From a phage, in NCBI GenBank assembly GCA_033286805.1, contig GCA_033286805.1_4727.1: 64,000 bases of DNA; one strand, written 5' to 3'. Made by a program: the position numbers and the translations under genes. Positions 25,813 through 49,911 of this stretch are shown piece after piece (the first letter of the stretch is position 1; every line of letters starts with the position of its first letter). The notes beneath the pieces were generated by a model. That model had not been told where the DNA came from and searched no databases. It saw only the letters and a program-made list of their open reading frames with translations.

Positions 25813-26601
25813 TTAGAATGCTAAACCATCAAAGGCGATTGACGGATCATCGTCGTCATTTGCGCTAGGCGCGTCCCAACGTGTGTCAGGGGCTGCTGAA
25901 GCCGAACTTGAGGCATTAGAGTTACCGTTGTACTGGCCGTTACCAGCATTACGGTTACCGCCACCGTTGTTATTGTTACGATTGTAGCTGTTGTTACCAT
26001 TGCTTACGCTACGACTTTCACCGTCAAAGTTGGTTGCGAGGATGCTTGGTAACACCGCACGATGGATACGTACGAATTCCAGCGCACAAAGCGGAGAAAC
26101 AACACCGATCTGCAAAGGTTGTCCAGACTCATCAACCAAAGCGTGGAAACGCGGCGGTTTGAACACGAATTGGATGTTCGGTTTTTGGTACGCGGTTACC
26201 GCGATGTACACCGAACCATCGTCATTCTTACCCACCCACGTTGTGCTCTCGGTAATCTGCTTTTTCTTACCTGGGTTATTGCGATCATCGATAACCTTTT
26301 CGTTCTTCATCGCAAAGCGTTGACCAGGTTTACCCTTAGCAACCTGCTCGAGGATCGCAAGCAGGTTATAGAACGCGTATGAGCTCATGCGTGCCCAAAT
26401 GCTTTCAGCGCGACCCTGCTGGTCTTTACGACCGGTGTAAACCGTGATACGCGGTTGATTCTTAGCAACGCTAATTTTCAATGAGGGGACTGAATTACCG
26501 CCCTCAACCTTTTCGTCCGCCCACAGTTTCCAGTTGTTGTCGTCATACGCTGTAGGAATAATGTTTCCTTGTGGTTTACTGCCCGAATTCCAATTGCTCA
26601 T
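25813..26601 (-). CDS. putative nucleic-acid-binding protein with disordered Asn/Gly-rich linker and acidic tail (SSB-like architecture), 262 aa
   Basis: Folded N-terminal ~180 aa, then NGNNSYNRNNNNGGGNRNAGNGQYNGNS low-complexity, ending NDDDDPSIAFDGLAF; architecture only, no fold evidence. Confidence 0.4.
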   Translation of the reverse strand: MSNWNSGSKPQGNIIPTAYDDNNWKLWADEKVEGGNSVPSLKISVAKNQPRITVYTGRKDQQGRAESIWARMSSYAFYNLLAILEQVAKGKPGQRFAMKNEKVIDDRNNPGKKKQITESTTWVGKNDDGSVYIAVTAYQKPNIQFVFKPPRFHALVDESGQPLQIGVVSPLCALEFVRIHRAVLPSILATNFDGESRSVSNGNNSYNRNNNNGGGNRNAGNGQYNGNSNASSSASAAPDTRWDAPSANDDDDPSIAFDGLAF

Positions 26602-30937: not shown

Positions 30938-30961
30938 CACTTAAGTAATATAGCCGTGAAA
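30938..30961 (-). promoter_or_regulatory. early-promoter-like motif (minus-sense TTTCACGGCTATATTACTTAAGTG)
   Basis: Same motif, 94 nt upstream of the membrane-protein gene. Confidence 0.5.
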
Positions 30962-31768: not shown

Positions 31769-31810
31769 GATTGTCCTCGTTTTCAATTTTAAGATTGCAT
31801 GCGGCATAAA

Positions 31811-31835
31811 CCCTCCCCGCCTTATGCAGGGAGGG
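31811..31835 (-). terminator. hairpin terminator with TTTATGCCG tail
   Basis: ccctccc / gggaggg stem. Confidence 0.55.
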
Positions 31836-31850
31836 TAGCCATTAAATGGA

Positions 31851-32489: not shown

Positions 32490-32504
32490 TACAGGCGTCC
32501 TCCT

Positions 32505-32741
32505 TTAGCAATGGTTGTTAGTTGCTTCTATTTCGTCAAGATAAGGTTCTACGTCATCGCCCTCCACGAATTCGTTGAACCAACAGTCAATGGTAGAAAT
32601 AACCGGTGACTGGTGTTCACATTTCTTAGATACCTTAAAAGGTACGTTATTATCCATCATACCGAGTTCGGGTCGGAATCTCCCGAAATGTTTCGCAGTC
32701 CAAATGTCTGGGACGATATGGTTGTTCATCAATATCTTCAA
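32505..32741 (-). CDS. small hypothetical protein (78 aa), doubtful
   Basis: TTG start in track, no convincing SD; abuts tandem structured element A. Confidence 0.3.
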   Translation of the reverse strand: MKILMNNHIVPDIWTAKHFGRFRPELGMMDNNVPFKVSKKCEHQSPVISTIDCWFNEFVEGDDVEPYLDEIEATNNHC

Positions 32742-32749
32742 TACGAATC

Positions 32750-33122
32750 GCTACTTCGTATCCGCAGCATTACCTGCAGCTCCTGGTGTTACCAGGATGT
32801 TGAGAGTATATCATGTCCATATTCCAAATGGAACGTAGGACTTCCGCGCTGGATCTCGCTTGAGACCGCTTACTCGTTGAACGTTCTCCTAAACGGAGCT
32901 TCGCTGCTGATTGGACATTGTTACGTACGGTAGGCGTCCCATTAAAGGGATTTTCATTGAAGCCGCGTACATCCGTTACCTTGTTTCTACCTTATCGGTT
33001 CCTCTTACGAGGCGTAACGGCTTTAGCCTATTCCAGCAATTCACGGAATGCATATTCTCCTTTTCAGGAGATAAGGCCATGGCTCTGGCATCACCGTCAA
33101 AGTCCACGTATCTTCAGTATGG
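32750..33122. repeat. structured element A (about 373 nt), unit 1 of a diverged tandem pair
   Basis: Shares collinear conserved blocks with unit B (ccgcagcattacctgcagctcctggtgttaccagga, gctgctgattg, ccttatcgg, ggctttagcc, cagcaattcacggaat); no ORF above 61 aa. Confidence 0.6.
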
Positions 33123-33480
33123 TTCGCTACTCCATACCCGCAGCATTACCTGCAGCTCCTGGTGTTACCAGGACGGAGAGATCATCTCATCACCCACGAA
33201 GGGTGTTCCGCGCTACCCTCAGCGAATTCGAGGGACATGATCGTTGAACCTTCCACCGATAATCGGCGGCTAGGCTGCTGATTGAACATTGTACGTTGGG
33301 GTGGCATCCTGGTGCAGGACTGTCGTTGAAGCCTCCCAACATCCACTCACTTATTTCCGCCTTATCGGCTCCCACAAGGGCAGAGTGGCTTTAGCCCGTC
33401 TCAGCAATTCACGGAATTCAAGCTCTTCCTTTCGGAAGGCAGGGCCTCATTTGAAGCGTTGTATCCCTTAAGGATCATCA
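33123..33480. repeat. structured element B (about 358 nt), unit 2 of the tandem pair; overlaps last ~26 codons of the beta' N gene
   Basis: Collinear with unit A; stems differ by compensatory changes (aggc/gcct vs gggc/gccc; tctcc/ggaga vs cttcc/ggaag). Confidence 0.6.
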
Positions 33481-34705
33481 CGCTTAACCCGATGGTGTTA
33501 TCCTGCGGATCGCGTTTAACCTTGGTGATTTCAAGACATTGGTTACTGCTTCGGTCAAGTGATGGGTTTCGAACAAAGCCGCACACAATCCCATCGAACG
33601 GTGTATCAGCAATAAGCTCATCGTGCAGCTCGCTCATCATCGGATGATAATTACGGACATGTTCCGCAACGAACGCACGTGCCGCTCTTGGCGAATAACC
33701 ACGATGGAATAACTTGGATTGGATATGTTCTTTATTGGTTAAAGTAAATGGTGCGTATGGGAAATGCAGATGATAATAACGATGGTTCGCTGTTATCGAA
33801 CTGATTACAGTACGCGTGGTGAATGGATGTAATGTACCTAATATGTTTTTACGTGTGATACCTTTCTTCTTACCGATGAACTCATCGAAAATTGCTGCGT
33901 GGTATTGCAGTAGCTTCAGTTGTACTTTCGCCATCCAGTTTTCTTTCTTTCTGGCGCTCAAAGGTGTTGTTGGGTGATAGATACTATTCAACGTACCGAT
34001 AGCATCGATCGCACCTTCCATTTTGCTATCTGCATAACGACCGGTCGGCGTATTTTCGATAACGAACATCATGGCCGCAGGAAAGCTGATATACTGACTG
34101 AAGAACTTATCACGATGGATACGGATGAATTCTCGTAGCGTGTCAACTTTCTCCGTGTTCTTCGGTCCACGTAACGTGGGTCCTTTATACAAGATCTCCA
34201 TGATACGATCGAAGTTCTGTATAAAGCTATTTACGCCACGTCGTATCCCGAATGCATCAAATTGCTGCTCTAGATAGTTCTTGAGTTCAATGGGTCGTTT
34301 TACATTTGGACGGTAACTGGCATCAATGAGCCACGTCATCGTTTCAAAGCTTTTGATATTCAACTCGCTTGCCAGCACGAGATGGACCAACGGGTTAATG
34401 AACGCATCGATTCCTTCAGGGACACGCGCCCAGACCGTCGAACGAATCTCTTGTTCTGCTGGGTAGGTTACAACCGTTTTACAGTTTGGACACACCGTGC
34501 CGAGTAGCTCACCACGATTGTAGAAACCACAACCACATTGTGGTGTGATATCCAACGTATCGCTGGAGTAAACACGGGTGATAAAACTGTTTAATTTCTT
34601 CTTCTCTTCGACGACTTTTGTATCGTAATCATTCAACAAAATCGGCGTAAAAGGAAGTTCTGCGAGCTGTCTATCGAAACTCACGATATCGAGCATGATG
34701 GCCAT
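33401..34705 (-). CDS. multisubunit RNA polymerase beta' subunit, N-terminal fragment (434 aa)
   Basis: CGCGFY...CPNCKTVV matches the beta' N-terminal zinc finger; GTLHPFTTRTVISS resembles GKRVDYSGRSVITV; EHVRNYHPMM...IVCGFV resembles EVIREHPVLL...LVCAAY; ORF ends where NADFDGD would follow. Confidence 0.65.
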   Translation of the reverse strand: MAIMLDIVSFDRQLAELPFTPILLNDYDTKVVEEKKKLNSFITRVYSSDTLDITPQCGCGFYNRGELLGTVCPNCKTVVTYPAEQEIRSTVWARVPEGIDAFINPLVHLVLASELNIKSFETMTWLIDASYRPNVKRPIELKNYLEQQFDAFGIRRGVNSFIQNFDRIMEILYKGPTLRGPKNTEKVDTLREFIRIHRDKFFSQYISFPAAMMFVIENTPTGRYADSKMEGAIDAIGTLNSIYHPTTPLSARKKENWMAKVQLKLLQYHAAIFDEFIGKKKGITRKNILGTLHPFTTRTVISSITANHRYYHLHFPYAPFTLTNKEHIQSKLFHRGYSPRAARAFVAEHVRNYHPMMSELHDELIADTPFDGIVCGFVRNPSLDRSSNQCLEITKVKRDPQDNTIGLSVMILKGYNASNEALPSERKSLNSVNC

Positions 34706-34747
34706 GGGGTATCTCCTACAAATGAAAAAGAACGTTAGGACGTATAA

Positions 34748-34771
34748 GGGAGGGAGGTTGCCCTCCCTCCC
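34748..34771 (-). terminator. strong hairpin after the candidate chimallin gene
   Basis: Perfect 10-bp stem gggagggagg / cctccctccc with 4-nt loop, 27 nt after the stop. Confidence 0.55.
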
Positions 34772-34797
34772 GTCAGATTACATCGAACGTTCTTCCA

Positions 34798-36693
34798 TTA
34801 GAACAGGTTGAATGCCCCACCCATGTTGTTAACGCCAACATTCGGACGATCGCTACGTGCGTAGATGTTACCGGAGATGTTACCCAGACCACGAGCACGT
34901 GCTGCCATGTTACCACGAACGGCGGTACCTGCCAGATGCTGGATGTTCTCAGGACGGATGGTGAAGCCAGCATCAGCCGCAGCTTCGATCAGCGCCTGCA
35001 GTGCTAACGGATCGAAGTCGTAACGCATTGCCCAGCCGGTTTGTTCCCAGCTACCAGACAGAACACGATCGATGATTTCGTGACGAGCGACAACACGCTG
35101 AGACATCGTCATATCGGTACGGTCGAAGCTGTCTTCCCAAGCTTCTACGGTATCCGGGTTAGTGATGTTCATCATGTACAGATCGTCCATATCACGAATA
35201 TCGTGACGGTGACCATCCTGGTGGTTGTAGTAACCCAGCGGGATACGGTTACCGGTAGCGTAGACCAGCGGTTGGCCGTATTGATATTTCTTGCTGAAGC
35301 AACCCAGGGTAGTATCATCGAAGGCACGGTAGAGTGCTTTGTAACCTTCGGAGATTTCCCGGACTTCACCTTCAACTTTGCCCGTAAAGATCTTCTCAGC
35401 CGCCGGGATCATACGCAGCAGCCAGCTATACTCGCCTTCTTCTGGTACGTCGATAGAAATCAGCAGAGACGGATACAGAACCTGTTGCAGGAACTTGTAA
35501 ATCTGCTCGTTGGTTTGCGTAGACAGATCCAGCGGTGCAGTCACTTCAGGATCCAGCACCATCGCCAGAGCACCTGGGTTATGCGGACCAATACCACGAG
35601 CCGCGTTGCTGATTAAAGACTGTGCCCATGCCATGCCGCTGTTCAGCGTAGCGATGGTACCAATCAGACCCAGCACGAAGCTGTTCGGTGTGAACGCATC
35701 CAGCTCCAGCGGGTAAACGCTGGTCATCACGTAACGCGGCTGGTATTGTACAGTCGGCGGTACCGGATAGCCGTTAACCAGAACAGGGCCTTGGTTGAAG
35801 GTCGGGTTCTGCGGGCTGTAGGTCAGGTCAATGTAACCGGTGGTGGCGACCAGACGCTGTTGACTATCGTAATCGCTCATCGCTTGACGGATGCGGTTAG
35901 AGATAGTTACAGTGATGTCAGAACGCACAGGGTTACCAACAATATCGCTGTCCTGCATACCGCTGGTGTTGTACTGAACGCTGCTGATTGGCTGATCGCT
36001 TGCCATCATGCCCAGGTTGAACTGCGGCAGACCCAGTTTATCACCGAGACGGATTTCGATCGCGGTTTGGATTGCGTTATCTGCAGCAGACAGCAGGGTG
36101 GTTGCCAGATGCGCAGATTCAGCGGTGATTTCATTGGTCACCACAGCCAGACCAGCGATACGAACAGTACCGTTAGACTTACCGCCAATAGCTGAATACA
36201 TTGCCGCCATGACTTCGTTGATGAACGTACCGTTCAGGTTATCAACCCAGGTACGCGGTACCAGAATGTTACCATGCGGACCTTGTTCTTCACGACGCGG
36301 CAGCGGAGCCAGACCAGCAACCAGCGGCAGGACGTAACCGAAGAAGTGGTTATGATCACCAACTTTTGCACCGCTCATAACAACCAGGGTCGGATACGGT
36401 ACGCTGTACTGGTTCGGGTCAACCGCAACAAAGATGAAGTCGTCTTTGAACTGGGTATCTTCCAGATATTTCTCCATCAGACGACGGAGATTCAGTACCT
36501 GCTCGGAGCCGGTATTACGGCTGATACGACGGCTCAGTGTACGGTTGATCGTACGCATCGTATGAGTTACTTTAGGACGGTCGGCAAAATCTGCAGCGGT
36601 TTCCAGCGCCTCATCAGCACGTTGTGCGGTGCGGGTTTCAGCTGCACGAATTTCTACATTATCGTTACCGTTATTACGTACGTCTAAGCCCAT
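34798..36693 (-). CDS. chmA: candidate chimallin (phage-nucleus shell protein), 631 aa
   Basis: Length matches recalled chimallin size; strong codon bias; early-promoter-like motif 73 nt upstream; GC hairpin terminator just downstream; PhuZ-like gene 11 genes away; no alignment done. Confidence 0.5.
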   Translation of the reverse strand: MGLDVRNNGNDNVEIRAAETRTAQRADEALETAADFADRPKVTHTMRTINRTLSRRISRNTGSEQVLNLRRLMEKYLEDTQFKDDFIFVAVDPNQYSVPYPTLVVMSGAKVGDHNHFFGYVLPLVAGLAPLPRREEQGPHGNILVPRTWVDNLNGTFINEVMAAMYSAIGGKSNGTVRIAGLAVVTNEITAESAHLATTLLSAADNAIQTAIEIRLGDKLGLPQFNLGMMASDQPISSVQYNTSGMQDSDIVGNPVRSDITVTISNRIRQAMSDYDSQQRLVATTGYIDLTYSPQNPTFNQGPVLVNGYPVPPTVQYQPRYVMTSVYPLELDAFTPNSFVLGLIGTIATLNSGMAWAQSLISNAARGIGPHNPGALAMVLDPEVTAPLDLSTQTNEQIYKFLQQVLYPSLLISIDVPEEGEYSWLLRMIPAAEKIFTGKVEGEVREISEGYKALYRAFDDTTLGCFSKKYQYGQPLVYATGNRIPLGYYNHQDGHRHDIRDMDDLYMMNITNPDTVEAWEDSFDRTDMTMSQRVVARHEIIDRVLSGSWEQTGWAMRYDFDPLALQALIEAAADAGFTIRPENIQHLAGTAVRGNMAARARGLGNISGNIYARSDRPNVGVNNMGGAFNLF

Positions 36694-36758
36694 TTGGGAT
36701 TCCTCTTTTCTTAAACTTTATTAAATGACGTCATTGAATCAGCTTCTACTCGCTCATT

Positions 36759-36782
36759 CACCTAGGTAATATAACCCTGAAA
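36759..36782 (-). promoter_or_regulatory. early-promoter-like motif (minus-sense TTTCAGGGTTATATTACCTAGGTG)
   Basis: Same motif, 73 nt upstream of the candidate chimallin gene. Confidence 0.5.
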
Positions 36783-36947
36783 TTTTTTTCAATATTGGTG
36801 TAACCACATTGAACGATATAAACCCCCAGGCGAACGCTGCCGAGAAGCAACATTCTTTCTACATATAATCAGGATATGTCTGTAAACTTTTACTTCTCTT
36901 ATTGAGAGTAAAGTCATATCCGTTTACCATCTTCTTACGGAGTTCGT

Positions 36948-38042
36948 ATGTTTCGTGTTTTAAATAACCTCCCGCGAACATCATCGGGTGTGCAACCCGT
37001 CCCTCAGAAAGACTATCTAATACGTGAAGTTCAAAGAAACCTACAGACAATCCAGAACCACTATCAAGGTTTTACCTTCGCGGTTCAGAGCGATCACATC
37101 CTTGCATTGCTGCTCGCACAGCTCCCTATGAGATACGACATCTCAGTACAAACTTACTACGACATGATTCTCGATCTTACGCCAGAATTGGGTAATCGTG
37201 TCAAGTTGACAACATCAAGATACGCGGGTAAGTTATTCGACGGTGCTTTCTATCCGGGATTGCACGAAGCTATTATCGCAACCGGTGAAAGTCGTCTTAT
37301 TTCACGTGATGTTCTTGACAACTGGCGTAATTGGTCACCAGTTAGAATCGTGACGCACCCATACGCAAATCTTCGTTACATTCCTCTTCACCAAAAGCAG
37401 GTTGAAGAAGGACGAGGTTTTGCGGTCATTATGGTTGACGTACCTTTATTAGCGCTACAGTATCGAATGTGGTCTTTGGTCATGGGTCATAACGTCGACG
37501 GTAAATGGGTGGTTAAAGAACCGGTTACAAGCTTCCTTGCGAGTTTTCCGTTGGTTAACGTATTATACTCACACAACGATGTTGTTATACGTAATCGTTG
37601 TTTGTGGGTATCTCCGGCTAAGAATCCACTCAAATCACCAATTTACGTTAACGACCTTGATAACGTATTCAGCCAAGTCGTTCTGTCCGTACAGCATCAT
37701 TTATTACGAAGAAGACGAAGCTACACCGACATGCTTAAACAGATACCGAGTTTATACGGGGATCAGTACCAAGCAACCCGGATGGGCTATACCGTCGATC
37801 TTCGACAAACACGATGGGCAAGGGATCTGGGTTGTCTGTCATTATGGCAACAACTCGTCACACTACAAAACGTATCTGAAAGCGTCGGGTTCAGCAGTCA
37901 AATCGATAACGACCTGTATCGTGCCGCCGACCGAAGTCTAAAAGAAGGTAACTGGGAATCCTCTCCGTTACCTGGCGATTTAAGACGTGAAGTTATCGCA
38001 CAGGTTGCCGACCTCTTAAAAATTCTTCCTGCTGGTACATAA
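36948..38042 (+). CDS. hypothetical protein (364 aa)
   Basis: ATG with ACGGAG SD; convergent with 38109..40262, hairpin between. Confidence 0.55.
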   Translation: MFRVLNNLPRTSSGVQPVPQKDYLIREVQRNLQTIQNHYQGFTFAVQSDHILALLLAQLPMRYDISVQTYYDMILDLTPELGNRVKLTTSRYAGKLFDGAFYPGLHEAIIATGESRLISRDVLDNWRNWSPVRIVTHPYANLRYIPLHQKQVEEGRGFAVIMVDVPLLALQYRMWSLVMGHNVDGKWVVKEPVTSFLASFPLVNVLYSHNDVVIRNRCLWVSPAKNPLKSPIYVNDLDNVFSQVVLSVQHHLLRRRRSYTDMLKQIPSLYGDQYQATRMGYTVDLRQTRWARDLGCLSLWQQLVTLQNVSESVGFSSQIDNDLYRAADRSLKEGNWESSPLPGDLRREVIAQVADLLKILPAGT

Positions 38043-38046
38043 TCAC

Positions 38047-38090
38047 CTCCCTCTTCCCTTGCATCCTCCCAACCCGTAAGGGAAGGGAGG
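38047..38090. terminator. extended imperfect hairpin between convergent genes
   Basis: tccctcttccct / agggaagggagg arms. Confidence 0.4.
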
Positions 38091-38108
38091 ATGGGGTGGT
38101 GGATTATG

Positions 38109-40262
38109 TTACTCTGCGGTTTCTCGCTTCGGTAAATAACTTGCTGCGATGTCTTGGGCCAACAATGTATTGTTTTTATTCGAGATGAAAATACCGTAAC
38201 TTTCCATTAACGCGTAATACGAACGCACGAGCGTAGAGATCAATCGACGAATATCCATACCTTGAATAAAGATATCGGGAAGCCCGGAGGCTTCGATCAC
38301 CGGTAATGGTATCGTTAAGTTGCTTATCGTTTTCTTATCGTTACGTACAATCCAATCACGGAAACGTTGTTGTAACCCTTTATCCTCCCAGGAATCAATC
38401 CAATCGTTAAGAAGCGTTTTGTTCTTCGTCGCCAACGGCACACGAACCCCAACATAGGGTGGTTCCTGGCAATGGCCGTACGATTGAGCAAACACCTCTT
38501 CCCACATATCGTAAGACTGTTTCGTTACTGCAACATGCGGTTTCACTTTAACACGTGTTAAGAAATCAGGATCACCACGTTTCATGGACTCAACGATTTC
38601 GTTTTCTAACGAGATAATATCATCAAGAACCAATCGAATGCTGATCTTCTCATTACGTAACAGCTTATCCATGATACCACACATCATGCGTTCAACACGT
38701 TTGACGATCATTTTTGGTGCTGACGCATCGCGCATAACCGGACCTTTCAATTCCAGCTTCGGTGGATTGATAGGAACCCCCTCACGCATGGTCATGTAAC
38801 CGTAATAGTTTTTACCCATCGAGGTTAACGACAGAATCAAGAACATATATTCGTTCTTCATTTCCATTACGTACATATGCTCTTTCGCCACACCGATATT
38901 ACCAGAACACATCGCCATCAGATGGACTGTAATCTGCGTAACCAGATAGATAAGCGTGTTTGCTAAGCGCGTCGAAACTGGATTGATCTCCATATTTCCA
39001 AATCGCCACTGAACCCACTCCTGGCAGGTAAACACCGTCGAGTCGGTATCAGACAACACGCCCACTTCACGGATTGCTGATGGGAAAGCATAAACACCAG
39101 CCGGTTGGTTCTCGGTACGCCAGAACGCCATAATCAAATCAGCATAGCTTTGAATACGCTGTAGCATTAATTTTGTCGTTGCTGCAGTAAGACGATAACC
39201 AAGCTCATTTCCTTTTTCTAGCGCTACGTAAATCGCTTCCCCATTCAAGAACTCCGTACATTGTGCTGTAATCCAAGCGACCGTGTTGTTATCCATGGAA
39301 GCAATAATGGCTTTAGCCTCTTCCATCGTTTCAACAGGTTCGGATGCCAGCTCGCATAACGAATCAAGAAAATCTCGAACAAATTCAGGATTAAGCTCAC
39401 GTAACGAGTACAGGTTATTGCTGTACATGTAGCAGGCGCGTTCCAGTGGGGTTAAACCGGTAATTAACTCCCGGATAGTCAGTTCTTTCTCTGGGTCGAA
39501 AGTATACCGATGCAAGCATTTCGATACGTTAGCCCAAACCTCTTCCGGCGTAGGGTAATGTAGTTTGTATTTTACCATTACCTGTTCAATGGCTTTACGA
39601 TCGCTGTTGCGGACAATACTCACGATGTTTTCAATTGCGATATCACAATCGTAATAATGGAAATTGCCCGCAAGGAAGCGTTCGTTGTTCGCATTGGCTG
39701 AACCTGAAGCACAGCGACATGTTGTCGTTAAACTTGGATGTGCGATCGGATTATAAAAAGGGTTAAACTTGGACGCCTGGGTTCCTGACAAACTGTTGTT
39801 ATCTAACTTGGTGTTGGTTTGTCGTTTATCGTGTAACTCAGCTTCATCTTTACGTCCGTGTGCTTGTGCTATCGACATTTGTTTCTTTTGTTTCTTACGC
39901 AACTTACCGTTTTCAACCGCGAAATCGCTTAGCACACTGGAACGTGTTTCACGTGGATAACAGTTAGCCCATACCGGCGTGATAATTAAATTATTTTCTT
40001 TAATATCATTGAAGTATTGGCTGAACTTAATGACTTCTTTTTCTCGATTTCCTTCGGTACGCTGTGTTAATACAAGACAGTCGGGATCAACCATCCCGTA
40101 TTTTCCACCGGGACGAACCGTATCAAGGACAAACTGTAACGCTTCCTGCTGTGATATCCCACGCATGCGCATTAAGAACAGGGTATAATCCTGTACCGCT
40201 TCTTTGGTCATATCCAACGTACGACCATATCCGTTTTCATCGTAAAAGAACGGATTTTCCAT
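38109..40262 (-). CDS. large hypothetical protein (717 aa); function unassigned
   Basis: Long ORF with GGAGG SD; contains LSDTDS and KNYYGY motifs but in the wrong order for a family-B polymerase. Confidence 0.6.
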   Translation of the reverse strand: MENPFFYDENGYGRTLDMTKEAVQDYTLFLMRMRGISQQEALQFVLDTVRPGGKYGMVDPDCLVLTQRTEGNREKEVIKFSQYFNDIKENNLIITPVWANCYPRETRSSVLSDFAVENGKLRKKQKKQMSIAQAHGRKDEAELHDKRQTNTKLDNNSLSGTQASKFNPFYNPIAHPSLTTTCRCASGSANANNERFLAGNFHYYDCDIAIENIVSIVRNSDRKAIEQVMVKYKLHYPTPEEVWANVSKCLHRYTFDPEKELTIRELITGLTPLERACYMYSNNLYSLRELNPEFVRDFLDSLCELASEPVETMEEAKAIIASMDNNTVAWITAQCTEFLNGEAIYVALEKGNELGYRLTAATTKLMLQRIQSYADLIMAFWRTENQPAGVYAFPSAIREVGVLSDTDSTVFTCQEWVQWRFGNMEINPVSTRLANTLIYLVTQITVHLMAMCSGNIGVAKEHMYVMEMKNEYMFLILSLTSMGKNYYGYMTMREGVPINPPKLELKGPVMRDASAPKMIVKRVERMMCGIMDKLLRNEKISIRLVLDDIISLENEIVESMKRGDPDFLTRVKVKPHVAVTKQSYDMWEEVFAQSYGHCQEPPYVGVRVPLATKNKTLLNDWIDSWEDKGLQQRFRDWIVRNDKKTISNLTIPLPVIEASGLPDIFIQGMDIRRLISTLVRSYYALMESYGIFISNKNNTLLAQDIAASYLPKRETAE

Positions 40263-40337
40263 AAATCCTCCAAAAGTTATTTAGTCTGTCTACATCATCT
40301 CGTATATCTGTTAAAAAAGAAGGACGGCATAAAAAAG

Positions 40338-40365
40338 AACCGATCCAGCCGAAGCCAGATCGGTT
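40338..40365 (-). terminator. intrinsic terminator: 12-bp stem, UUCG tetraloop, U-tract then TTTATGCCG
   Basis: minus-sense aaccgatctggc-ttcg-gctggatcggtt with two G-U wobbles that are valid only on the minus-sense RNA. Confidence 0.65.
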
Positions 40366-40561
40366 AAAAAAGGATAATAACTGACAGAAAGATATCGATG
40401 ATGTTCGTGAAACAAGATCTTCTCTCGTGTACAATGATGCTAGATCAGAGGGAGGTTGTAACACGAGAGGTGGTCCGCCAAAGAAGGAATAAAAACACGA
40501 ACCTATCTTATTTCACTGATGGCACTAACCACTCAAAATATATAGTACCGTATGTAAAAGT

Positions 40562-40975
40562 TTACTGATTAATCAAGTCGTTAGCAACAATCTTGGTGTA
40601 ACCTGCTTGATTAAGAATTTGATTAATTTTCGTCACGTCGGTCGCATCCTCAATAACGATGCTGGGTTTATAGATCAGCGTCTTGGTAACGACGATTGTA
40701 CTCTCCTTAATCCAAGGAATCCCTAGAATCACATACTCACCATCGGCTGTAATGACCTCGACGTAATTGTATTTCGTCGGATCGTTCGGTACACTAGACG
40801 GGAGCCGGGAATAAATCTGTTGGTGAATGGCATCTACATCACGACCGTTACGTACAGCTGTGCGATAATTGTACACAGCGCTAATTTCTACTCCGTTGAA
40901 GTTAACCCCAAGTTCTGGGGCGTACACATCAAAACTCACAACAGAGCCAATCTTTTCTAAATCAGAAGCTGGCAT
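40562..40975 (-). CDS. hypothetical protein (137 aa)
   Basis: ATG with AAGGA SD. Confidence 0.5.
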   Translation of the reverse strand: MPASDLEKIGSVVSFDVYAPELGVNFNGVEISAVYNYRTAVRNGRDVDAIHQQIYSRLPSSVPNDPTKYNYVEVITADGEYVILGIPWIKESTIVVTKTLIYKPSIVIEDATDVTKINQILNQAGYTKIVANDLINQ

Positions 40976-40990
40976 AATAGCATCCTTTAT

Positions 40991-41386
40991 TTAAAAAATG
41001 TATTCATATCCGAAAGTCGTCGCTGACCAGACCCGGATAGATGATAGTGTTCCGCCACGATAAAACGTTTTTGTGAATTCCATATCCTGGACAACACGAT
41101 AATAAACACGTCCGATAATACGTACGATAAGGTTTCGTGATAACGATCTCTCCTCGCAGTATTCATCGATAAAGTCATCGTCGATATCCGATAAGACAAC
41201 ATCCGCAATTTCTTGCAGTAGATTCCTCATCAGCATCTGCCTTCCTTCGGTACCCCACCCAGACAAACAGTAATCGTCTTCTGCCTGACTATAGATGTCG
41301 TTAACCGCCTGTTCGAGCAGTTGCTCAAGATAGTAGTCATCGCGTTTTATAACGTGGCGACGGCGCTCAGTGGCGTATTTTTCCAT
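40991..41386 (-). CDS. hypothetical protein (about 131 aa; start uncertain, track start 41509)
   Basis: Overlaps 41347..41835 in another frame. Confidence 0.35.
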   Translation of the reverse strand: MEKYATERRRHVIKRDDYYLEQLLEQAVNDIYSQAEDDYCLSGWGTEGRQMLMRNLLQEIADVVLSDIDDDFIDEYCEERSLSRNLIVRIIGRVYYRVVQDMEFTKTFYRGGTLSSIRVWSATTFGYEYIF

Positions 41387-41835
41387 CCTGTGTTTCTCTT
41401 GTTCGGCGTATGTATTAACGACGCCACAGTCTTTTCTGGATCGTCCCACAATGCACGACGAAAACTGGATACTACCATAACGGTAGGATAGATTTGTACA
41501 ACCTCCCATCCGTAACGATGTGCGTTAGTCGTACGTCCGACATTGAACAGACATAGCTGATTTAAGAAACAGAGCTGCATCTTCGTAAATAACACCATGT
41601 CTTCACGTTTAACGTATCCGAGGATATACGCATTCTCGAACGCCTCGCGCGACAAGACGGGACGATTAAGATACCGCAACGACAGTACCAACAACGTTGT
41701 TATACGCAACGGATCTTCTGGGTCATTCATGGTGCTCAGCTCTGCTTGTAACCAGTCAGGGATAGTAACCGTCAGACGATAGGTATCTGTTCCACGATCA
41801 ACCACATTCAATGTTGAAAAAGGCAACATATCCAT
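41347..41835 (-). CDS. hypothetical protein (162 aa)
   Basis: ATG with GAAGGA SD. Confidence 0.45.
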   Translation of the reverse strand: MDMLPFSTLNVVDRGTDTYRLTVTIPDWLQAELSTMNDPEDPLRITTLLVLSLRYLNRPVLSREAFENAYILGYVKREDMVLFTKMQLCFLNQLCLFNVGRTTNAHRYGWEVVQIYPTVMVVSSFRRALWDDPEKTVASLIHTPNKRNTGWKNTPLSAVATL

Positions 41836-42292
41836 GAATTCCTTCTAGCTCGAGGTTATTCTCGCCCGTCTTCGGTAATAACCCACTGGCCGTTAACATC
41901 TGCGTCATCGAGTAGTCAAAGCACGGAAATATCAGGTTAACGGTTTCCTGGATCGCGTCAACATAACTATAAATGGCTTCATAATACTCACCGTCATGAT
42001 CTACACTAACCAGTTCCTGACACAGTTCTTCGCTTATCATTTCATATACCGGTGGATACCATGATTGAAATGGTCGCTGCATACGTAACGACCAATACTC
42101 GTACGTCGTATACTGAAGCACGTCGTAAGCCGATACGTTAATGCGGTCGAAGAAAGCATACTTGTCCATATGCTGATACAACATCGCCAGCACGGTTTCC
42201 AAGCACACCGATATCCGCACGCCGTCATCTTTCCCGTTAAGAAAATTAGGTTTCTGCCGATAACGCACAAATGCCGACGGCTTTGATTGCAT
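41798..42292 (-). CDS. hypothetical protein (about 164 aa)
   Basis: Start moved to ATG 42292 in a TAATG stop-start junction with the upstream gene. Confidence 0.45.
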   Translation of the reverse strand: MQSKPSAFVRYRQKPNFLNGKDDGVRISVCLETVLAMLYQHMDKYAFFDRINVSAYDVLQYTTYEYWSLRMQRPFQSWYPPVYEMISEELCQELVSVDHDGEYYEAIYSYVDAIQETVNLIFPCFDYSMTQMLTASGLLPKTGENNLELEGIHGYVAFFNIECG

Positions 42293-42777
42293 TATTCCAC
42301 CACCAACCATAACGTCATACTCGTATCTAACGTAAAATTGAAATGCCACCAATCTTCTACACGTGGAATCCACGTACGAAGGATTTGGTTAACTTCGCTT
42401 CGCATCACCGATAAACGACAACGAAAATCGAACTTCTCATCATGACCGTAGTCTTCATGCATGAAAACTTCATCCAAAACGAACTCAAGTTGCATGTCGA
42501 CATCACGACCAGAGATATTCCGTTTGTACAAATACAACTCAATCGTGTCGTAAAGCAACGTATGAATATCATAATTTCCGTTCGGTGAGAAATAAGGTAA
42601 TCGCTCATCGAACATCGAAAACAGATATTCGCTGTAGTTTAATAACGGGATGATGTACCGACGCCCTGTCTGTGGTGTGCGAATATGTATCGAAACCTGA
42701 CTTGGGCGCGGAATAACCGACGGCTTAGAATCGTCTCTCTGAAATTGCTCTAAAGATCGCAACAAAGGTGGCCGCAT
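42292..42777 (-). CDS. hypothetical protein (about 161 aa)
   Basis: Start moved to ATG 42777 with GGAGAG SD. Confidence 0.45.
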   Translation of the reverse strand: MRPPLLRSLEQFQRDDSKPSVIPRPSQVSIHIRTPQTGRRYIIPLLNYSEYLFSMFDERLPYFSPNGNYDIHTLLYDTIELYLYKRNISGRDVDMQLEFVLDEVFMHEDYGHDEKFDFRCRLSVMRSEVNQILRTWIPRVEDWWHFNFTLDTSMTLWLVVE

Positions 42778-43021
42778 TGTAACTCTCCAACGCCCAATTG
42801 TAAGGCCCTTCCAACATGTGTTCCCATACGTGAATAAACTCACTACCGAAGACAGGCTCTAGCGCCATAGTGAGATTCGTAAGTTCTGACGCGGCCGCAT
42901 GGTAAGCATCAACATGTCTTTCCATTGACGGATCGTCTTCATTGAAAATACGTTCTGTATCGCCAGCGCGCTCAATAAGTTCGGTAATGAGATCTGTCCA
43001 TGTCTCGTGACACGTCATCAT
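42725..43021 (-). CDS. hypothetical protein, or the C-terminal part of a frameshifted 42725..43949 gene
   Basis: Protein-like sequence begins upstream of the first plausible ATG, inside the overlap with 42972..43949. Confidence 0.3.
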   Translation of the reverse strand: MMTCHETWTDLITELIERAGDTERIFNEDDPSMERHVDAYHAAASELTNLTMALEPVFGSEFIHVWEHMLEGPYNWALESYNAATFVAIFRAISERRF

Positions 43022-43949
43022 TTCCTGTTCTCGACTTAGTATGCCGATGTCTGCGTGGACGCTGGACTCGAACCGGTCTAAAAGGACCCGAAGAACGTGC
43101 ACCTTGTCGATGTATTTCACCGTTATCCAAGAAAGCGGTTGCCACCGACTCAGCATCCATCCGGTACTCGGGAACCCCAAACTCATATAGTACGGGTTGC
43201 ACCGGACCGAAGACGGAGCGACGTTGTTTAAATCGCTCCTTAAGGGCAAGGCCTTGTTTAATATAAACGGGTTCATTGGCGAGTTGTTCCGCTTTTCGTT
43301 TTGCGTGAGCCAATCGAAGTTCTTCCAATTGCCCAAGCCATTCAAATTGTTCATCTGTTAGCTCCTGGGGACGTTCAACAATCGCGCCAGACGGGCAGAT
43401 ATTGATCGTAATGTTAATTGACGGCATCGCCATCACTCGAGGATTACTATTACGTACGCGGACAACGTGTTCGGTTGCTGATTTACGATCGACGCAATAC
43501 TCTGTTTCTTGGAACTCAAATGCTTTTAACGGCGCTGGTTTTGTTTGACGTTTAGGAACGCGACCAAGATCAACAATATAGGCATAATCGCACACACGTT
43601 CTATTCCGTAAATACGGTTATCCGACCAGTTCTTACCAAACAGCTTGTTGTGATGATAAGACAAATATTCGGTTACCATACCCTGGACAACATCGAAGTC
43701 TTCTCGAAATTCGGGTTGGTACCAAATCGGGCCGAGAATATCTGCGAACGATTCATGACGATATCGAGGATCATGTCGAGTCCAGGTCATTCTCTGGTTA
43801 AGATCGAAATCCACCAACAACTCGGTTAATTGCAATTTTTCCTTCGGAGAAAGCTGGCGTTGATGATGCAAACTCAGGCAATCGATAAGCGGTAATGAAA
43901 CCCACGATGCTAATGTGTACAAATCGATCCTGGCTAATCTCTTGGTCAT
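42972..43949 (-). CDS. hypothetical protein (325 aa; Arg-rich C-terminal ~50 aa may be out of frame)
   Basis: Protein-like until about 43127, then Arg-rich tail; the +1 frame becomes protein-like at the same point. Confidence 0.45.
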   Translation of the reverse strand: MTKRLARIDLYTLASWVSLPLIDCLSLHHQRQLSPKEKLQLTELLVDFDLNQRMTWTRHDPRYRHESFADILGPIWYQPEFREDFDVVQGMVTEYLSYHHNKLFGKNWSDNRIYGIERVCDYAYIVDLGRVPKRQTKPAPLKAFEFQETEYCVDRKSATEHVVRVRNSNPRVMAMPSINITINICPSGAIVERPQELTDEQFEWLGQLEELRLAHAKRKAEQLANEPVYIKQGLALKERFKQRRSVFGPVQPVLYEFGVPEYRMDAESVATAFLDNGEIHRQGARSSGPFRPVRVQRPRRHRHTKSRTGNDDVSRDMDRSHYRTY

Positions 43950-44040
43950 ACTCTTTTCCTAAGTCCCCATTGTTTATACACACGATATCTGGGAATAGTT
44001 AAAATATACGGCGTAAAACGAAGCAGGAGAGTTTCTGACG

Positions 44041-44361
44041 TCATTTTCTCCCTCTTCGAATACCACCGATACCTCTTTCGTCTAAGACGTCCCAAGCACG
44101 CTTTATTTCATCCTCCGTTGCTCTGGTATCTGGAGGGACAACCATAACACAGTCGTGGAATGGCCAATGTGTAGGTCTGGGGTTAGCGAACAAATCATCC
44201 CATTCAAATGTCCATTCTTTCTTTGAGCGATTGTAGTAGAGCGTAAGGTACGTGTTGGTATACGCCGGATAACCGCGCATAACTTCAATATCCTTACGAT
44301 CTTGCCGTTCCTGATTCCAATCGTTAAACCGCTTTCTTATTTTCTCCCACCACTTTCCCAT
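44041..44361 (-). CDS. hypothetical protein (106 aa)
   Basis: ATG with AGGAG SD directly after terminator 44385..44404. Confidence 0.55.
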   Translation of the reverse strand: MGKWWEKIRKRFNDWNQERQDRKDIEVMRGYPAYTNTYLTLYYNRSKKEWTFEWDDLFANPRPTHWPFHDCVMVVPPDTRATEDEIKRAWDVLDERGIGGIRRGRK

Positions 44362-44384
44362 GCTTTCTCCTAGACGGCATAAAA

Positions 44385-44404
44385 GCCTGCCCCGAAGGAC
44401 AGGC
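44385..44404 (-). terminator. intrinsic terminator: 8-bp stem, UUCG tetraloop, TTTTATGCCG tail
   Basis: minus-sense gcctgtcc-ttcg-gggcaggc (one U-G wobble). Confidence 0.6.
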
Positions 44405-44414
44405 TCGATAGAAC

Positions 44415-44615
44415 TTAACGACCATCCAATTTCAATGAAGGATGGTTGACGATATGTGCGTGTTTTGCTGGGTCATATAGCTGATATGGAAAATAGCCAT
44501 GCCATTGACGGCCTTGGCATTTCGTACACAGGAACTGACCAACACCTTGTCGATTCTCGTAAGCGAGTTCGGTACTATCAACATGTCCGCAACGTTCGCA
44601 GATAAACAGCGACAT
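44415..44615 (-). CDS. small zinc-ribbon protein (66 aa)
   Basis: CERCGH ... CTKCQG Cys pairs. Confidence 0.5.
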   Translation of the reverse strand: MSLFICERCGHVDSTELAYENRQGVGQFLCTKCQGRQWHGYFPYQLYDPAKHAHIVNHPSLKLDGR

Positions 44616-44652
44616 AGCGCATCCCCATTCACTTGAACCTTTTGGTTCGGCA

Positions 44653-45633
44653 TTAGAAAAGCAAGAAACCGCTATTCTTCGCTTCCGCTACAGTTTCGTC
44701 ACCAACTTTCGGTGCTTGTTGACGTGCGTTACGATGTTCGATGTAACGTTTCGCTTCGTCCGCGATCTGTTTGATAATACCCCCTAAACGATCGGTACTT
44801 AAAACAAACGACGTCGCTTCACGAATCGGGCTGCTTTCAGGCACAAAACCATCACAGCTATAAATAGCGCTAACACCCATGACTTTTGTCGCGTCTTTCG
44901 GATAAAGCGTACAGAAAGCAATCGGGCTATCGTTCTCTTTCGTCCAATCGTATCCCATGAACGTATTCAGTTCGGTGATCGTTGGTTCCAAACCGGTAAC
45001 ACGTGGATGGTTTAAGAAGTTTTCCAGGTCGGCGCTGTCAAGACGACGGTTCTCGCCAGAAAACAGAACACAAAGCTGGCTAATAACAACCTGGACGTCC
45101 AGGTTGACATCCTGCTCCGATTTCCCATTTTCGCCATTCATGTGATAGCTAACAATCACCGGACGTTTCAATCCTTCTGCGGCTGCCATCAGTCCTTTGA
45201 AGGTGCGATCGGCGTTGATCGTCTGGCGCTCATCATCGAACGAGGCAACGATACAACACACCACACGTTCACCGCGTTCCAGCAGGTTAGCAACCAACGC
45301 AGGACCGGCAACAGAACCTGAACCACCGCTCAAACTAAAGACCACGATATTAAATTTACCCGGCGTATGCTTATTGAGAATACCTGGGATTTGTGAACAG
45401 ATCAGTTCAGCGTTCTCATCACGCTTCTTACCAGAACCGTCTAACTCACGACCAGCTGCATCTTTAAAGATGTAAATATGATCGTCGCCCAGTGTGCTAT
45501 CGCGTAGGTTAGCGCGGCTGGTATCAACATACGTCATGCTGTGTAATCCTTTCGCGACTTCGCCTTCAAATGCTGAGCCGATTTCGCCACCACAACCACC
45601 GACAGCCCAAATATGTACTTGGTTCTCTTGCAT
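44653..45633 (-). CDS. phuZ: PhuZ-type phage tubulin (TubZ/FtsZ-like GTPase), 326 aa
   Basis: N-terminal nucleotide loop AVGGCGGEIG; tubulin signature-like SLSGGSGSVAGP (GGGTGSG family); strong AGGAG SD. Confidence 0.75.
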   Translation of the reverse strand: MQENQVHIWAVGGCGGEIGSAFEGEVAKGLHSMTYVDTSRANLRDSTLGDDHIYIFKDAAGRELDGSGKKRDENAELICSQIPGILNKHTPGKFNIVVFSLSGGSGSVAGPALVANLLERGERVVCCIVASFDDERQTINADRTFKGLMAAAEGLKRPVIVSYHMNGENGKSEQDVNLDVQVVISQLCVLFSGENRRLDSADLENFLNHPRVTGLEPTITELNTFMGYDWTKENDSPIAFCTLYPKDATKVMGVSAIYSCDGFVPESSPIREATSFVLSTDRLGGIIKQIADEAKRYIEHRNARQQAPKVGDETVAEAKNSGFLLF

Positions 45634-45697
45634 GTGAACTCCTAACTTAATATGTATTTAACGCACAATGAATCTTTCTTTGCTAAAGGGGTGACCC

Positions 45698-46540
45698 ATG
45701 GGTGCTATTGACTACAGTGTAGATCGTATCTGTCGTACAATACCGGCAGATATCCTACAGTATTGCTATATCGATCGTTACGACTGGCGTAATCGCTATC
45801 CTCGTTCCGTAGAAGACATCATTACCGATTGGGTAATCCGTAAACGGGTTATCGGCGACATCGATATATACGGGGGACTACAAACCGTTATCCCCCTTGA
45901 TGATGCCGGTGTCACTATCGAAGAAGTCACCATTAACTGTTATGTTTTCCACATCCCGTTGGAAGCCACACAGGGACGTTATATCACGTCTGCATTATCC
46001 ATTATTTCAGGGAGCGTGAACAACTACGGAATAAACTATAACGGGCAATGGGGTGCTTTCAACCAAACCCAGTTTCAACGTCAGCTTTGTGGGTGGAACC
46101 CTGCAAGCAACACGTTACAGCAGGGGATGAACGCGTTCGGTCCTATGAACGTTCTTAGTACAGCCAACGTTGATATCATCGCCCCTAACACCATCATGGT
46201 GAACAACGTCACGCCGGTACAATTTCCCCTGAGCCTACGTTGTTTCCTTGCCCACGATCCGGAACTTACTAACCTCAGCATGGAGGTTTGGAACGACTTC
46301 TACAAACTCTGTTTATACGCCACACAAAGTGACATCTATAACAGAACCGTTATCCGTCTCGATAGAGGTGTTACAGCACAAGGACAAGAAGTCGGTGCAT
46401 TCAAGGAATACATCGATCGCTTTGCCGATGCTGAAAACACATATCAGGAATTCCTCAACGAAACGTGGGCAGGCGTTGCCGCCTGGAACGATCCGCAAAC
46501 TAAACGTCGCGCCATTCGACTACAAACCGGTTACTTCTGA
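45698..46540 (+). CDS. hypothetical protein (280 aa)
   Basis: Divergent from phuZ; followed by plus-strand terminator 46554..46578. Confidence 0.55.
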   Translation: MGAIDYSVDRICRTIPADILQYCYIDRYDWRNRYPRSVEDIITDWVIRKRVIGDIDIYGGLQTVIPLDDAGVTIEEVTINCYVFHIPLEATQGRYITSALSIISGSVNNYGINYNGQWGAFNQTQFQRQLCGWNPASNTLQQGMNAFGPMNVLSTANVDIIAPNTIMVNNVTPVQFPLSLRCFLAHDPELTNLSMEVWNDFYKLCLYATQSDIYNRTVIRLDRGVTAQGQEVGAFKEYIDRFADAENTYQEFLNETWAGVAAWNDPQTKRRAIRLQTGYF

Positions 46541-47067
46541 TTAACGACAGCTTCCTCCCTCGGAGTTTTCGAGGGAGGTATTTGCCGCTTGAACACTTTC
46601 AGCATGTTCGCAAAATCAGCAGCAATAATACAGGCCGAGGTTGACAGCTTATTGCTGAAAATGAGATCGTCCGGTAAACAATCGAACTGAATACCGTATT
46701 GCGTCTTTGTCTCATCAACGATCAATGATGGTGTCGATCTTGTCTTCGCGATGTCGGTGATATACAAACGTAAAAATAATTCACCGTCTTCGCTATCCAT
46801 AAAACGATAAGCGTTACCAGAAAATGCAGCATGTGGCGTAACGATAAATTGAACACGATCGTCGGTCGGATGGATATTTAACCAACGTTCGATATCACTG
46901 CTACTCACATTTTGCATATTTACTACGGTAAAAGCAAATAGCGTATCGTGATGTTTGGAATAATGCAGCACATACGCCGCATCTTTCTTTCCGTGAATCC
47001 CTTCAATGTATTCTATTGTCGTATAGCCGGATTTATATAGCTTTACTTGCGGTTTATCACTCATCAT
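46531..47067 (-). CDS. hypothetical protein (about 178 aa)
   Basis: Start moved to the ATGA stop-start junction at 47064-47067. Confidence 0.45.
   Translation of the reverse strand: MMSDKPQVKLYKSGYTTIEYIEGIHGKKDAAYVLHYSKHHDTLFAFTVVNMQNVSSSDIERWLNIHPTDDRVQFIVTPHAAFSGNAYRFMDSEDGELFLRLYITDIAKTRSTPSLIVDETKTQYGIQFDCLPDDLIFSNKLSTSACIIAADFANMLKVFKRQIPPSKTPREEAVVNQK
46554..46578 (+). terminator. hairpin terminator after plus gene 45698..46540
   Basis: Perfect 9-bp stem cctccctcg / cgagggagg, loop gagtttt, tail TATTTGCCG. Confidence 0.55.
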
Positions 47068-47363
47068 AACAACCCTTCCCGTTTCATCGCAGCACGCATA
47101 CTTGCGTAAAGCGCATTCCTCATTGCACCCGGACGCAACGGATAACAAATCTCATATCGACGTCCTTGTTTTACAGCAATTTTCCTTCCATTCAGAAACA
47201 ACGTGCCATTATCCAGCAACAACTCACCTTGTAGTACCATGAGTCCTGCTTTAACATGACGTCCTTCTTCTTTAGTTAAGACCTTATAGCCGTGTTTATC
47301 CAATAACCACAATTCGTAGATACCATGCGCAGCCTTCGGCATTACTTTCTTCTTCGTCGTCAT
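47064..47363 (-). CDS. hypothetical protein (99 aa)
   Basis: ORF. Confidence 0.45.
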   Translation of the reverse strand: MTTKKKVMPKAAHGIYELWLLDKHGYKVLTKEEGRHVKAGLMVLQGELLLDNGTLFLNGRKIAVKQGRRYEICYPLRPGAMRNALYASMRAAMKREGLL

Positions 47364-47375
47364 GGAAGATCCTCC

Positions 47376-47750: not shown

Positions 47751-47763
47751 GATAACCTATTCG

Positions 47764-49882: not shown

Positions 49883-49911
49883 CGTAGTAGTATCTGTTTA
49901 TCTCTTTTATG

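Follow-up and report, generated by a model that had tools for sequence, protein, structure and literature searches.

Gene content of the locus and its relation to Goslar

The window, by which we mean the whole 64 000-nucleotide stretch of phage DNA analysed here, carries the gene for chimallin (chmA), the gene for a phage tubulin (phuZ), the genes and signals between them and, immediately downstream of chmA, an RNA polymerase gene interrupted by two introns (Table 1). Over all 64 kb, the DNA is ~97% identical (range 96-98%) to positions 136172-200203 of Escherichia phage vB_EcoM_Goslar. The core set of chimallivirus genes is present in the window (RNA polymerase subunits, the PF20286 DNA polymerase and ChmC) and, as in the Pseudomonas phages 201phi2-1, phiKZ and phiPA3, two multisubunit RNA polymerases are encoded. 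A tRNA scan returned zero tRNA genes.

Table 1. Features of the window discussed in the text; sequences are given where they define a feature
Feature	Position	Strand	Remarks
chmC, nucleus-associated RNA-binding protein (Goslar gp176)	25813..26601	minus	2 amino acid differences from gp176; PHROG 3284
Non-virion RNA polymerase beta' subunit-1 gene	32505..34705	minus	immediately downstream of chmA
beta' exon 1	34705..33455
beta' intron A	33454..33105
beta' 18-nt exon	33104..33087
beta' intron B	33086..32730
beta' exon 3	32729..32505
chmA 3' hairpin	34748..34771	minus	GGGAGGGAGG-GCAA-CCTCCCTCCC; 10-bp G+C-rich stem, GCAA loop
chmA, chimallin, major phage-nucleus shell protein, 631 aa	34798..36693	minus	orthologue of Goslar HOV27_gp246 (gp189 in papers)
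Shine-Dalgarno GAGGA	36701..36705	minus	7 nt before chmA ATG; read from sequence
Putative early (virion RNA polymerase) promoter of chmA	36758..36781	minus	TTCAGGGTTATATTACCTAGGTGA; 24-nt motif, function inferred
11 intervening genes	36948..44615	mixed	gp245-like gene, DNA polymerase and nine small ORFs
gp245-like gene	36948..38042	plus	PHROG 3938
Divergent family B DNA polymerase	38109..40262		PF20286
Nine small ORFs	within 36948..44615		function unknown
Strong intrinsic terminator	40338..40365	minus	12-bp stem then T-run; annotated in Goslar
Intrinsic-terminator-like hairpin	44381..44405	minus	AGCCTGTCC-TTCG-GGGCAGGCT, then TTTT; ends unit of phuZ and a small ORF (44415..44615)
phuZ, phage tubulin, 326 aa	44653..45633	minus	orthologue of Goslar HOV27_gp234 (gp201 in papers)

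An earlier sequence-only reading had proposed a phage-nucleus module here, with a candidate chimallin and a PhuZ tubulin encoded 11 genes apart, and had likened the gene spacing to that of a Goslar-like enterobacterial chimallivirus. That assignment was correct: the region is 98.1% identical to Goslar. Exactly 11 genes separate chmA and phuZ (HOV27_gp245 to gp235 in the Goslar annotation), all of them intact and with 99-100% amino acid identity. The spacing of the two genes differs among the Pseudomonas-phage genera and the Goslar type. Both nucleus genes of the proposed module are in place, but 'module' is not to be understood as a co-transcribed operon (see below).

Bacterial genome assemblies often contain contigs of Goslarvirus (PMC12768965), and a protein identical to the window ChmA also occurs in the assembly of a public sequencing run. 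Both observations would fit a decaying, non-functional phage remnant in a bacterial assembly, with genes no longer under selection. We consider this very improbable. None of the 13 ORFs from chmA to phuZ is disrupted, and substitutions relative to Goslar are overwhelmingly synonymous, with dN/dS values of 0 to 0.08 (0.08 for chmA; 0.03 for phuZ). The regulatory regions are conserved, and the mobile-element insertions have disturbed neither reading frames nor splice signals.

The tubulin and the shell protein

PhuZ differs from its Goslar counterpart (HOV27_gp234/gp201; PDB 9pm9, 9pmk; 326 aa) by a single conservative substitution, E229D (99.7% identity); the equation of 9pm9 with Goslar PhuZ was made by inference from the sequences. 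The nucleotide-binding loops, D199/D202 and the C-terminal tail are identical. Homology to PhuZ, and with it the GTPase fold, was apparent from matches to three solved phage tubulins (9pm9, 4e-220; phiKZ gp39, 3zbp, 8e-29; PhuZ201, 3r4v, 6e-15) and from the best family match, PHROG 4733 'tubulin PhuZ' (3e-68). Its score against Pfam Tubulin (29.9 bits) is under the gathering cut-off of 33, which makes a family assignment based on Pfam alone ambiguous; as tubulins go, PhuZ is divergent.

Both tubulin/FtsZ GTP-binding loops named by the sequence-only reading were found: AVGGCGGEIG from residue 10 and SLSGGSGSVAGP from residue 100, with the glycine-rich T1/T4 loops GGCGGEIG (residues 12-19) and SGGSGS (102-107). 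In the T7 loop, the DxxD motif reads D199-S-A-D202; its counterparts in the alignment are D187/D190 of PhuZ201 and LDLMD of phiKZ gp39. D202A is the published dominant-negative mutant, which stops nucleus rotation (PMC9891218). The C-terminus, described in the sequence-only reading as acidic, is not net acidic: the last 30 residues contain 4 acidic and 4 basic residues, with only a short DE..E.E patch followed by a hydrophobic FLLF end. In PhuZ201, an acidic C-terminal tail contacts the next subunit of the filament; the window protein also has a tail. Goslar-type PhuZ, with a tail that is not net acidic, forms a vortex (PMC9891218), whereas Pseudomonas-phage PhuZ forms a bipolar spindle.

The tubulin/FtsZ fold and the sub-threshold Pfam score would also be expected of a tubulin of the TubZ type, acting in DNA segregation and having nothing to do with the phage nucleus. 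This is highly unlikely: the protein is one residue away from a PhuZ that wraps and rotates the nucleus, its best PHROG match is to PhuZ, and its gene lies in a chimallivirus genome alongside those of ChmA and ChmC.

The 631-aa protein, previously a candidate chimallin, aligned end to end (residues 1-631, E = 0) with Goslar chimallin 7sqt. It has the same length and genomic position as Goslar ChmA (HOV27_gp246/gp189; PDB 7sqt, 7squ, 7sqv) and is 98.3% identical to it, with 11 substitutions. More distant solved chimallins were also matched (phiPA3 PhuN, 8fne, 2e-22; 201phi2-1, 7sqq, 2e-11), as were Pfam PF25677 (Chimallin_Phikzvirus; 96.6 bits, cut-off 27) and PHROG 4795 'nuclear shell protein' (3e-54). 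That the protein could instead belong to the capsid or another part of the virion, for which one might point to a high codon bias of the kind also seen in structural genes, the tail sheath gene among them, has practically no chance of being right and is refuted by the structure, Pfam and PHROG matches: all were to chimallins, the families found were confined to replication/transcription, with none from capsid or virion, and the shell lattice of the 98.3% identical protein has been solved in situ (PMC9365700).

The changes relative to Goslar ChmA are G38D, Q39R, R81Q, A167S, A177V, A326V, T338S, Y436F, V461T, L474Q and H488Y. Nine of them fall in the core and the other two in the N-terminal tail; their effect is probably neutral. 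Residues 40-80 and 489-631 are identical to Goslar; the latter stretch comprises the 143 C-terminal residues, which hold the C-terminal tail segments. The end-to-end alignment with the solved protein covers the NTS, CTS1 and CTS2 regions, as defined, with their docking on neighbouring protomers, in PMC9365700.

The chimallins and PhuZ proteins of 201phi2-1, phiKZ and phiPA3 (PDB 7sqq, 8fne, 8igg; 3r4v, 3zbp) share the same folds and motifs at low sequence similarity (~27% identity for PhuZ according to the literature; PMC9891218). Their chimallins align over approximately residues 62-622 of the window ChmA, and the T7 aspartates of PhuZ also align.

The discovery of the phage nucleus, a protein-bounded compartment in which viral DNA is out of reach of CRISPR and restriction enzymes, is important for phage biology. 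The proteins of the 97%-identical phage have already been characterised by structure determination, in situ tomography, knockdown and the study of mutants, so that what the locus contributes is only a natural variant of their sequences. Both genes are the well-studied ChmA and PhuZ, and there is nothing new for these two genes. The 11 tolerated substitutions in ChmA and the one in PhuZ provide a small map of positions that vary without gene loss.

Expression signals and transcription units

The expression signals that the sequence-only reading had attributed to chmA were largely borne out. The codon bias is extreme among the 62 ORFs of the window (E. coli-optimal codon fraction 0.789, z = +3.3; Nc 34.9), and the tail sheath gene, at 0.682, lies below it. 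An early-promoter-like motif is likewise present, with its TATATTAC core at 36766-36773, 73 nt upstream of the ATG. The bare octamer was not enriched in the window (4 matches against 2.26 expected; 20/100 shuffles reached 4). The 24-nt pattern matched the window four times, always on the minus strand, whereas 100 shuffles gave 0 matches, a comparison to be read in the light of the pattern having been built from these same four sites. Independent evidence comes from their placement and conservation: each of the four falls between genes, ahead of a gene and on its coding strand, and all are kept in Goslar. The motif is convincing only through its extension to 24 nt and the positional check. At chmA it is identical in Goslar and in line with the promoters predicted for 201phi2-1 and phiKZ in PMC7058600 (Table 2), and by this similarity we assign it as a putative early promoter. 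A scan for host-type promoters found 18 sites where 24.2 were expected, which is no enrichment; sigma-70 promoters are not the signal that matters here.

The 'strong terminator' placed after chmA corresponds to a 10-bp hairpin, 26 nt past the stop codon, but lacks a U-tract. It is consequently absent from the terminator scan; an inverted-repeat search also did not report it, probably owing to a low-complexity filter. The 95-nt gap after chmA has a folding energy of -41.1 kcal/mol (z = -6) and is identical in Goslar at 95/95 nt. The hairpin is probably either a terminator or an mRNA-stabilising element.

On the far side of the DNA polymerase gene, the strong intrinsic terminator separates it from the block of small ORFs, dividing the phuZ side from the chmA side. 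At the position matching the second terminator-like hairpin, at the end of the phuZ unit, the Goslar annotation also has a terminator (-18.8). Given two terminators, a gene on the opposite strand (gp245-like) and a promoter motif belonging to chmA itself, there is no single operon: chmA and phuZ are separate transcription units that cooperate functionally.

The protein identities, motifs, gene order, codon bias, conserved promoter motif and hairpin, and the purifying selection were observed directly in this analysis. We are all but certain that the window belongs to a phage related at strain level to the E. coli jumbo phage Goslar (Chimalliviridae), in which chmA and phuZ function, from separate transcription units, as they do in Goslar.

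For assembly, localisation, rotation and essentiality we draw on the literature on the Goslar proteins (98-99.7% identical), and the following would hold here by analogy. The promoter motif and published Goslar work suggest that chmA is an early gene, transcribed on the injected genome by the virion RNA polymerase carried in the particle; the extreme codon bias and strong ribosome-binding site point to translation at a very high level. Goslar chimallin self-assembles during infection into a lattice enclosing the phage DNA (PMC9365700, PMC10541120). The window protein would likewise form a flexible square lattice of tetramers, ~6 nm thick, held together by an N-terminal segment and two C-terminal segments docking on neighbouring protomers; the resulting shell would surround the replicating DNA and exclude host nucleases. 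Goslar PhuZ, a tubulin/FtsZ-fold GTPase, forms dynamic filaments that position or rotate the nucleus (PMC9891218). Here too, a vortex of such filaments round the nucleus would be expected to turn it, with GTP hydrolysis dependent on the T7-loop aspartates D199 and D202, and the rotation would spread capsids over the shell for packaging.

chmC, polymerase introns and a helicase intein

A third phage-nucleus gene in the window, chmC, was absent from the sequence-only reading; Goslar gp176 has been identified as ChmC (10.1101/2023.09.22.559000).

The order of chimallin followed by the non-virion RNA polymerase beta' gene is also seen in phages RAY and Eowyn. In the window, the beta' gene is interrupted within its catalytic NADFDGD motif by two group I introns, A and B, which are related to each other and contain no endonuclease gene. 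Rfam at gathering thresholds reported nothing in the window; the introns emerged only when these were relaxed, scoring 28 and 26 bits where the cut-off is 50. We prefer a splice model that ends in MNNHIVP, since its product is full-length; it removes the 350 nt of intron A and the 357 nt of intron B, and the joined exons would encode GYNA-DFDGDA-MNNH. The alternative continuation of NADFDGD, ELQVMLR[IV], was discarded, as it is part of the repeated intron and leads to stop codons. At its 5' splice site, intron B has a C-G pair where a U·G is normal.

In Goslar, the upstream intron lies 5 nt away from the position of window intron A and is an unrelated intron carrying the gene of an HNH endonuclease, gp186. 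Intron A may accordingly have arisen as an intragenic copy of intron B that destroyed the Goslar HNH recognition site and made the strain immune to intron interference in co-infection, although we put this forward as a speculative and rather unlikely history.

The helicase gene, which encodes 876 aa, carries an intein, in the Walker A motif, that is absent from Goslar. Splicing would be expected to yield a product of about 60 kDa and a free intein of about 40 kDa, and the block F cysteine (ARCITIDD) may act in a class 3 mechanism. On the immunity reading, the intein would be a second strain marker; the intron and intein polymorphisms are possible markers of this kind and could provide material for studying competition among Goslar-type phages.

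Identification of ChmA and PhuZ

The sequence-only reading had proposed a 631-aa chimallin and a PhuZ tubulin, and an ORF was found at each of the positions that it gave (see table). The 631-aa protein aligned over residues 1-631 with PDB 7sqt, 'Chimallin' (E = 0), and also matched the distant chimallins of phiPA3 (8fne, 2e-22) and 201phi2-1 (7sqq, 2e-11). It scored 96.6 bits against Pfam PF25677 (cut-off 27) and matched the PHROG 'nuclear shell protein', which is also the annotation of its orthologue HOV27_gp246 in the Goslar RefSeq record. Judged by these matches, the protein is chimallin, as proposed. Compared with the Goslar orthologue, chmA has 58 nucleotide differences, which alter 43 codons synonymously and 11 non-synonymously, and its dN/dS is 0.08. 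None of the 11 substitutions falls within residues 489-631, the stretch that holds the lattice-tying C-terminal segments; deletion of these segments from chimallin abolishes self-assembly (PMC9365700).

The 326-aa protein carries both of the GTP-binding motifs that had been quoted, at residues 10 and 100. It matched PDB 9pm9 (4e-220) with one mismatch, E229D, identical to the change separating this PhuZ from that of Goslar. Other solved tubulins were also matched (phiKZ gp39, 3zbp, 8e-29; PhuZ201, 3r4v, 6e-15), as was the PHROG 'tubulin PhuZ' (3e-68). The Pfam Tubulin score was only 29.9 bits, under the cut-off of 33, because phage tubulins are divergent. On these similarities the protein is PhuZ. 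In the alignment with PhuZ201, residues D199 and D202 correspond to D187 and D190; the D202A mutant of Goslar PhuZ acts as a dominant negative that eliminates the filament vortex and stops most rotation of the nucleus (PMC9891218). The expectation of an acidic C-terminus was only partly right, the last 30 residues having 4 acidic and 4 basic side chains and thus no net acidity.

The chmA/phuZ locus is already known, because work on proteins 98.3% and 99.7% identical to ChmA and PhuZ, respectively, has provided structures, in situ architecture, knockdowns and mutants. The window itself supplies the protein identities, the motifs, the purifying selection and the regulatory motifs. According to the literature on the nearly identical Goslar proteins, ChmA is an early product that builds a square lattice of tetramers beside the early infection vesicle, and this lattice then takes in the genome; knockdown of ChmA halts infection before DNA replication. 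PhuZ polymers form a vortex that pushes on the membrane and rotates the nucleus.

Features of the window discussed in the text
Feature	Coordinates	Strand	Description
chmA	34798..36693	minus	631 aa
phuZ	44653..45633	minus	326 aa
Intervening gene		plus	function not assigned
Intervening gene			divergent family B DNA polymerase, PF20286
Intervening genes			nine small ORFs; PHROG matches for two only, both of unknown function
Terminator-like hairpins with T-runs, between phuZ and chmA	44381-44405; 40338-40365
TTCACGGYTATATTACYTNNGTGA copies	6603-6626; 25658-25681; 30937-30960; 36758-36781	minus	each after an A/T-rich stretch
chmC (Goslar gp176)	25813..26601	minus	nucleus-associated RNA-binding protein
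RNA polymerase exon 1	34705..33455	minus	417 codons, end ...GYNA
Predicted intron A	33454..33105	minus	350 nt, without ORF
Micro-exon	33104..33087	minus	18 nt, DFDGDA
Predicted intron B	33086..32730	minus	357 nt, without ORF
RNA polymerase exon 3	32729..32505	minus	start MNNHIVP
SF2 DNA helicase	11774..14404	minus	876 aa
Helicase insertion	about 12914-13969	minus	352 aa, in frame

Expression signals and gene arrangement

Three expression signals had been ascribed to chmA: the strongest codon bias, an early-promoter-like motif and a strong terminator. The first holds, since chmA ranks first among the 62 window ORFs for the fraction of E. coli-optimal codons (0.789, z = +3.3), and its Nc (34.9) is the lowest of all. 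The second is borne out by the octamer TATATTAC, which occurs four times in the window, always on the minus strand, with flanks so alike that they define the 24-nt pattern TTCACGGYTATATTACYTNNGTGA. This pattern has four matches in the window and none in 100 shuffles, a test that is not independent as the pattern was built from the same four sites. By Goslar gene coordinates, all four copies are intergenic, on the coding strand and upstream of a gene; all are kept in Goslar, including that at chmA (36758-36781). The pattern fits the tabulated predicted promoter consensus of 201phi2-1 and the phiKZ TATATTAC element (PMC7058600), and probably serves Goslar-type phages as their early promoter, used by the virion RNA polymerase. 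We infer from the motif, with good support, a putative early promoter of chmA, as distinct from a mapped transcription start.

As to the terminator, a hairpin (perfect 10-bp G+C-rich stem, GCAA loop) lies 26 nt after the chmA stop, and the 95-nt 3' gap as a whole has a folding energy of -41.1 kcal/mol (z = -6). The hairpin lacks a U-tract and is absent from the terminator scan list. The flanking non-coding DNA is more conserved than the synonymous sites of chmA (dS 0.11), with 95/95 positions identical to Goslar at 34706-34800 and 250/254 at 36694-36947, consistent with regulatory constraint.

Exactly 11 genes separate chmA and phuZ by the Goslar annotation, as had been counted, and the window has every one of them intact, 99-100% identical to its Goslar counterpart. 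The 'module' itself survives as functional cooperation and not as shared transcription: the terminator-like hairpins with T-runs and the separate promoter motif of chmA argue that the two genes are not co-transcribed.

Predicted introns and an intein

The ORF directly downstream of chmA (33401..34705) encodes the initial part of beta' subunit 1 of the non-virion RNA polymerase; similarity of its product to homologues ends at residue 417 (...GYNA). The layout in the table comes from comparing the locus with its homologues in RAY (495 aa) and Eowyn (519 aa), which lack introns, and it points to a gene interrupted within the catalytic NADFDGD motif by two predicted group I introns around a micro-exon. 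The whole gene spans 32505-34705 (minus strand), and its counterpart in the Goslar comparison locus, L002, spans 31400-34811. The predicted spliced product (497 aa) has NADFDGD intact and matches the intron-less homologues to the end. The PHROG 2987 profile covers it over positions 1-474 of 478 (446.7 bits), as against 1-417 only for the unspliced ORF (387.3 bits). Both introns end in G; the preceding base is U for intron A and C for intron B, the latter forming a C-G pair within helix P1. The Rfam group I model scored them at 28 and 26.4 bits, below the cut-off of 50. An alignment of introns A and B with Goslar intron B has 97 predicted base pairs, 32 of which show compensatory changes.

Goslar too has intron B. 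Within the window, introns A and B are paralogues (71%). The upstream Goslar intron differs from intron A: it is 1440 nt long, contains the HNH endonuclease gene gp186, scores 46.9 bits with Rfam and is inserted 5 nt further downstream, leaving a 13-nt micro-exon. The spliced proteins differ at only 2/497 residues. In the Goslar annotation, exon 1 is a gene of its own, gp247, and exon 3 is another, the hypothetical gp185. An intron-borne endonuclease has reportedly been described in the RNA polymerase gene of a chimallivirus, in which case the introns here would be a further example of a known phenomenon. Homing endonucleases, often found in group I introns, are regarded as competition tools between co-infecting phages (PMC12908238, a review of nucleus-forming phages).

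The helicase insertion lies exactly within the Walker A motif (GSGK|T); the Goslar helicase, without it, is 524 aa. The insertion has two LAGLIDADG motifs, matches Pfam LAGLIDADG_3 and Hom_end, starts with Ala and ends in HN followed by Thr. Its N-terminal part matched the solved DnaB and gp41-1 inteins (E 3.5e-9 to 1e-6). On this evidence it is a LAGLIDADG intein. The positions of Trp, Cys and Thr, which we take to be the class 3 signature, suggest an intein of that class.

Relationship to Goslar

Goslar was the sole megablast match of the window in the phage collection, at 98.1% identity over 34000-46600, 96.4% over 1-25000 and 96.8% over 46000-64000. In a full comparison the window corresponded to Goslar 136172-200203, and no more than two large structural differences were seen. 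By these measures the window is a strain-level relative of Goslar (~97% identity), distinct from Goslar itself. The exact ChmA variant, with the same neighbour genes, is also present on a 4.9-kb contig (L004) in the Logan assembly of public run SRR24668568; the strain has therefore been sequenced elsewhere, unrecognised in the phage collection. A recent survey uncovered 237 Goslarvirus genomes within assemblies of bacteria (PMC12768965).

The window also carries chmC, which the sequence-only reading had not mentioned. Its product has only 2 amino-acid changes from Goslar gp176, yet its dS of 0.38 is the highest measured, the other nine genes lying between 0.02 and 0.15; this is a hint that the stretch has a recombinant or mosaic past.
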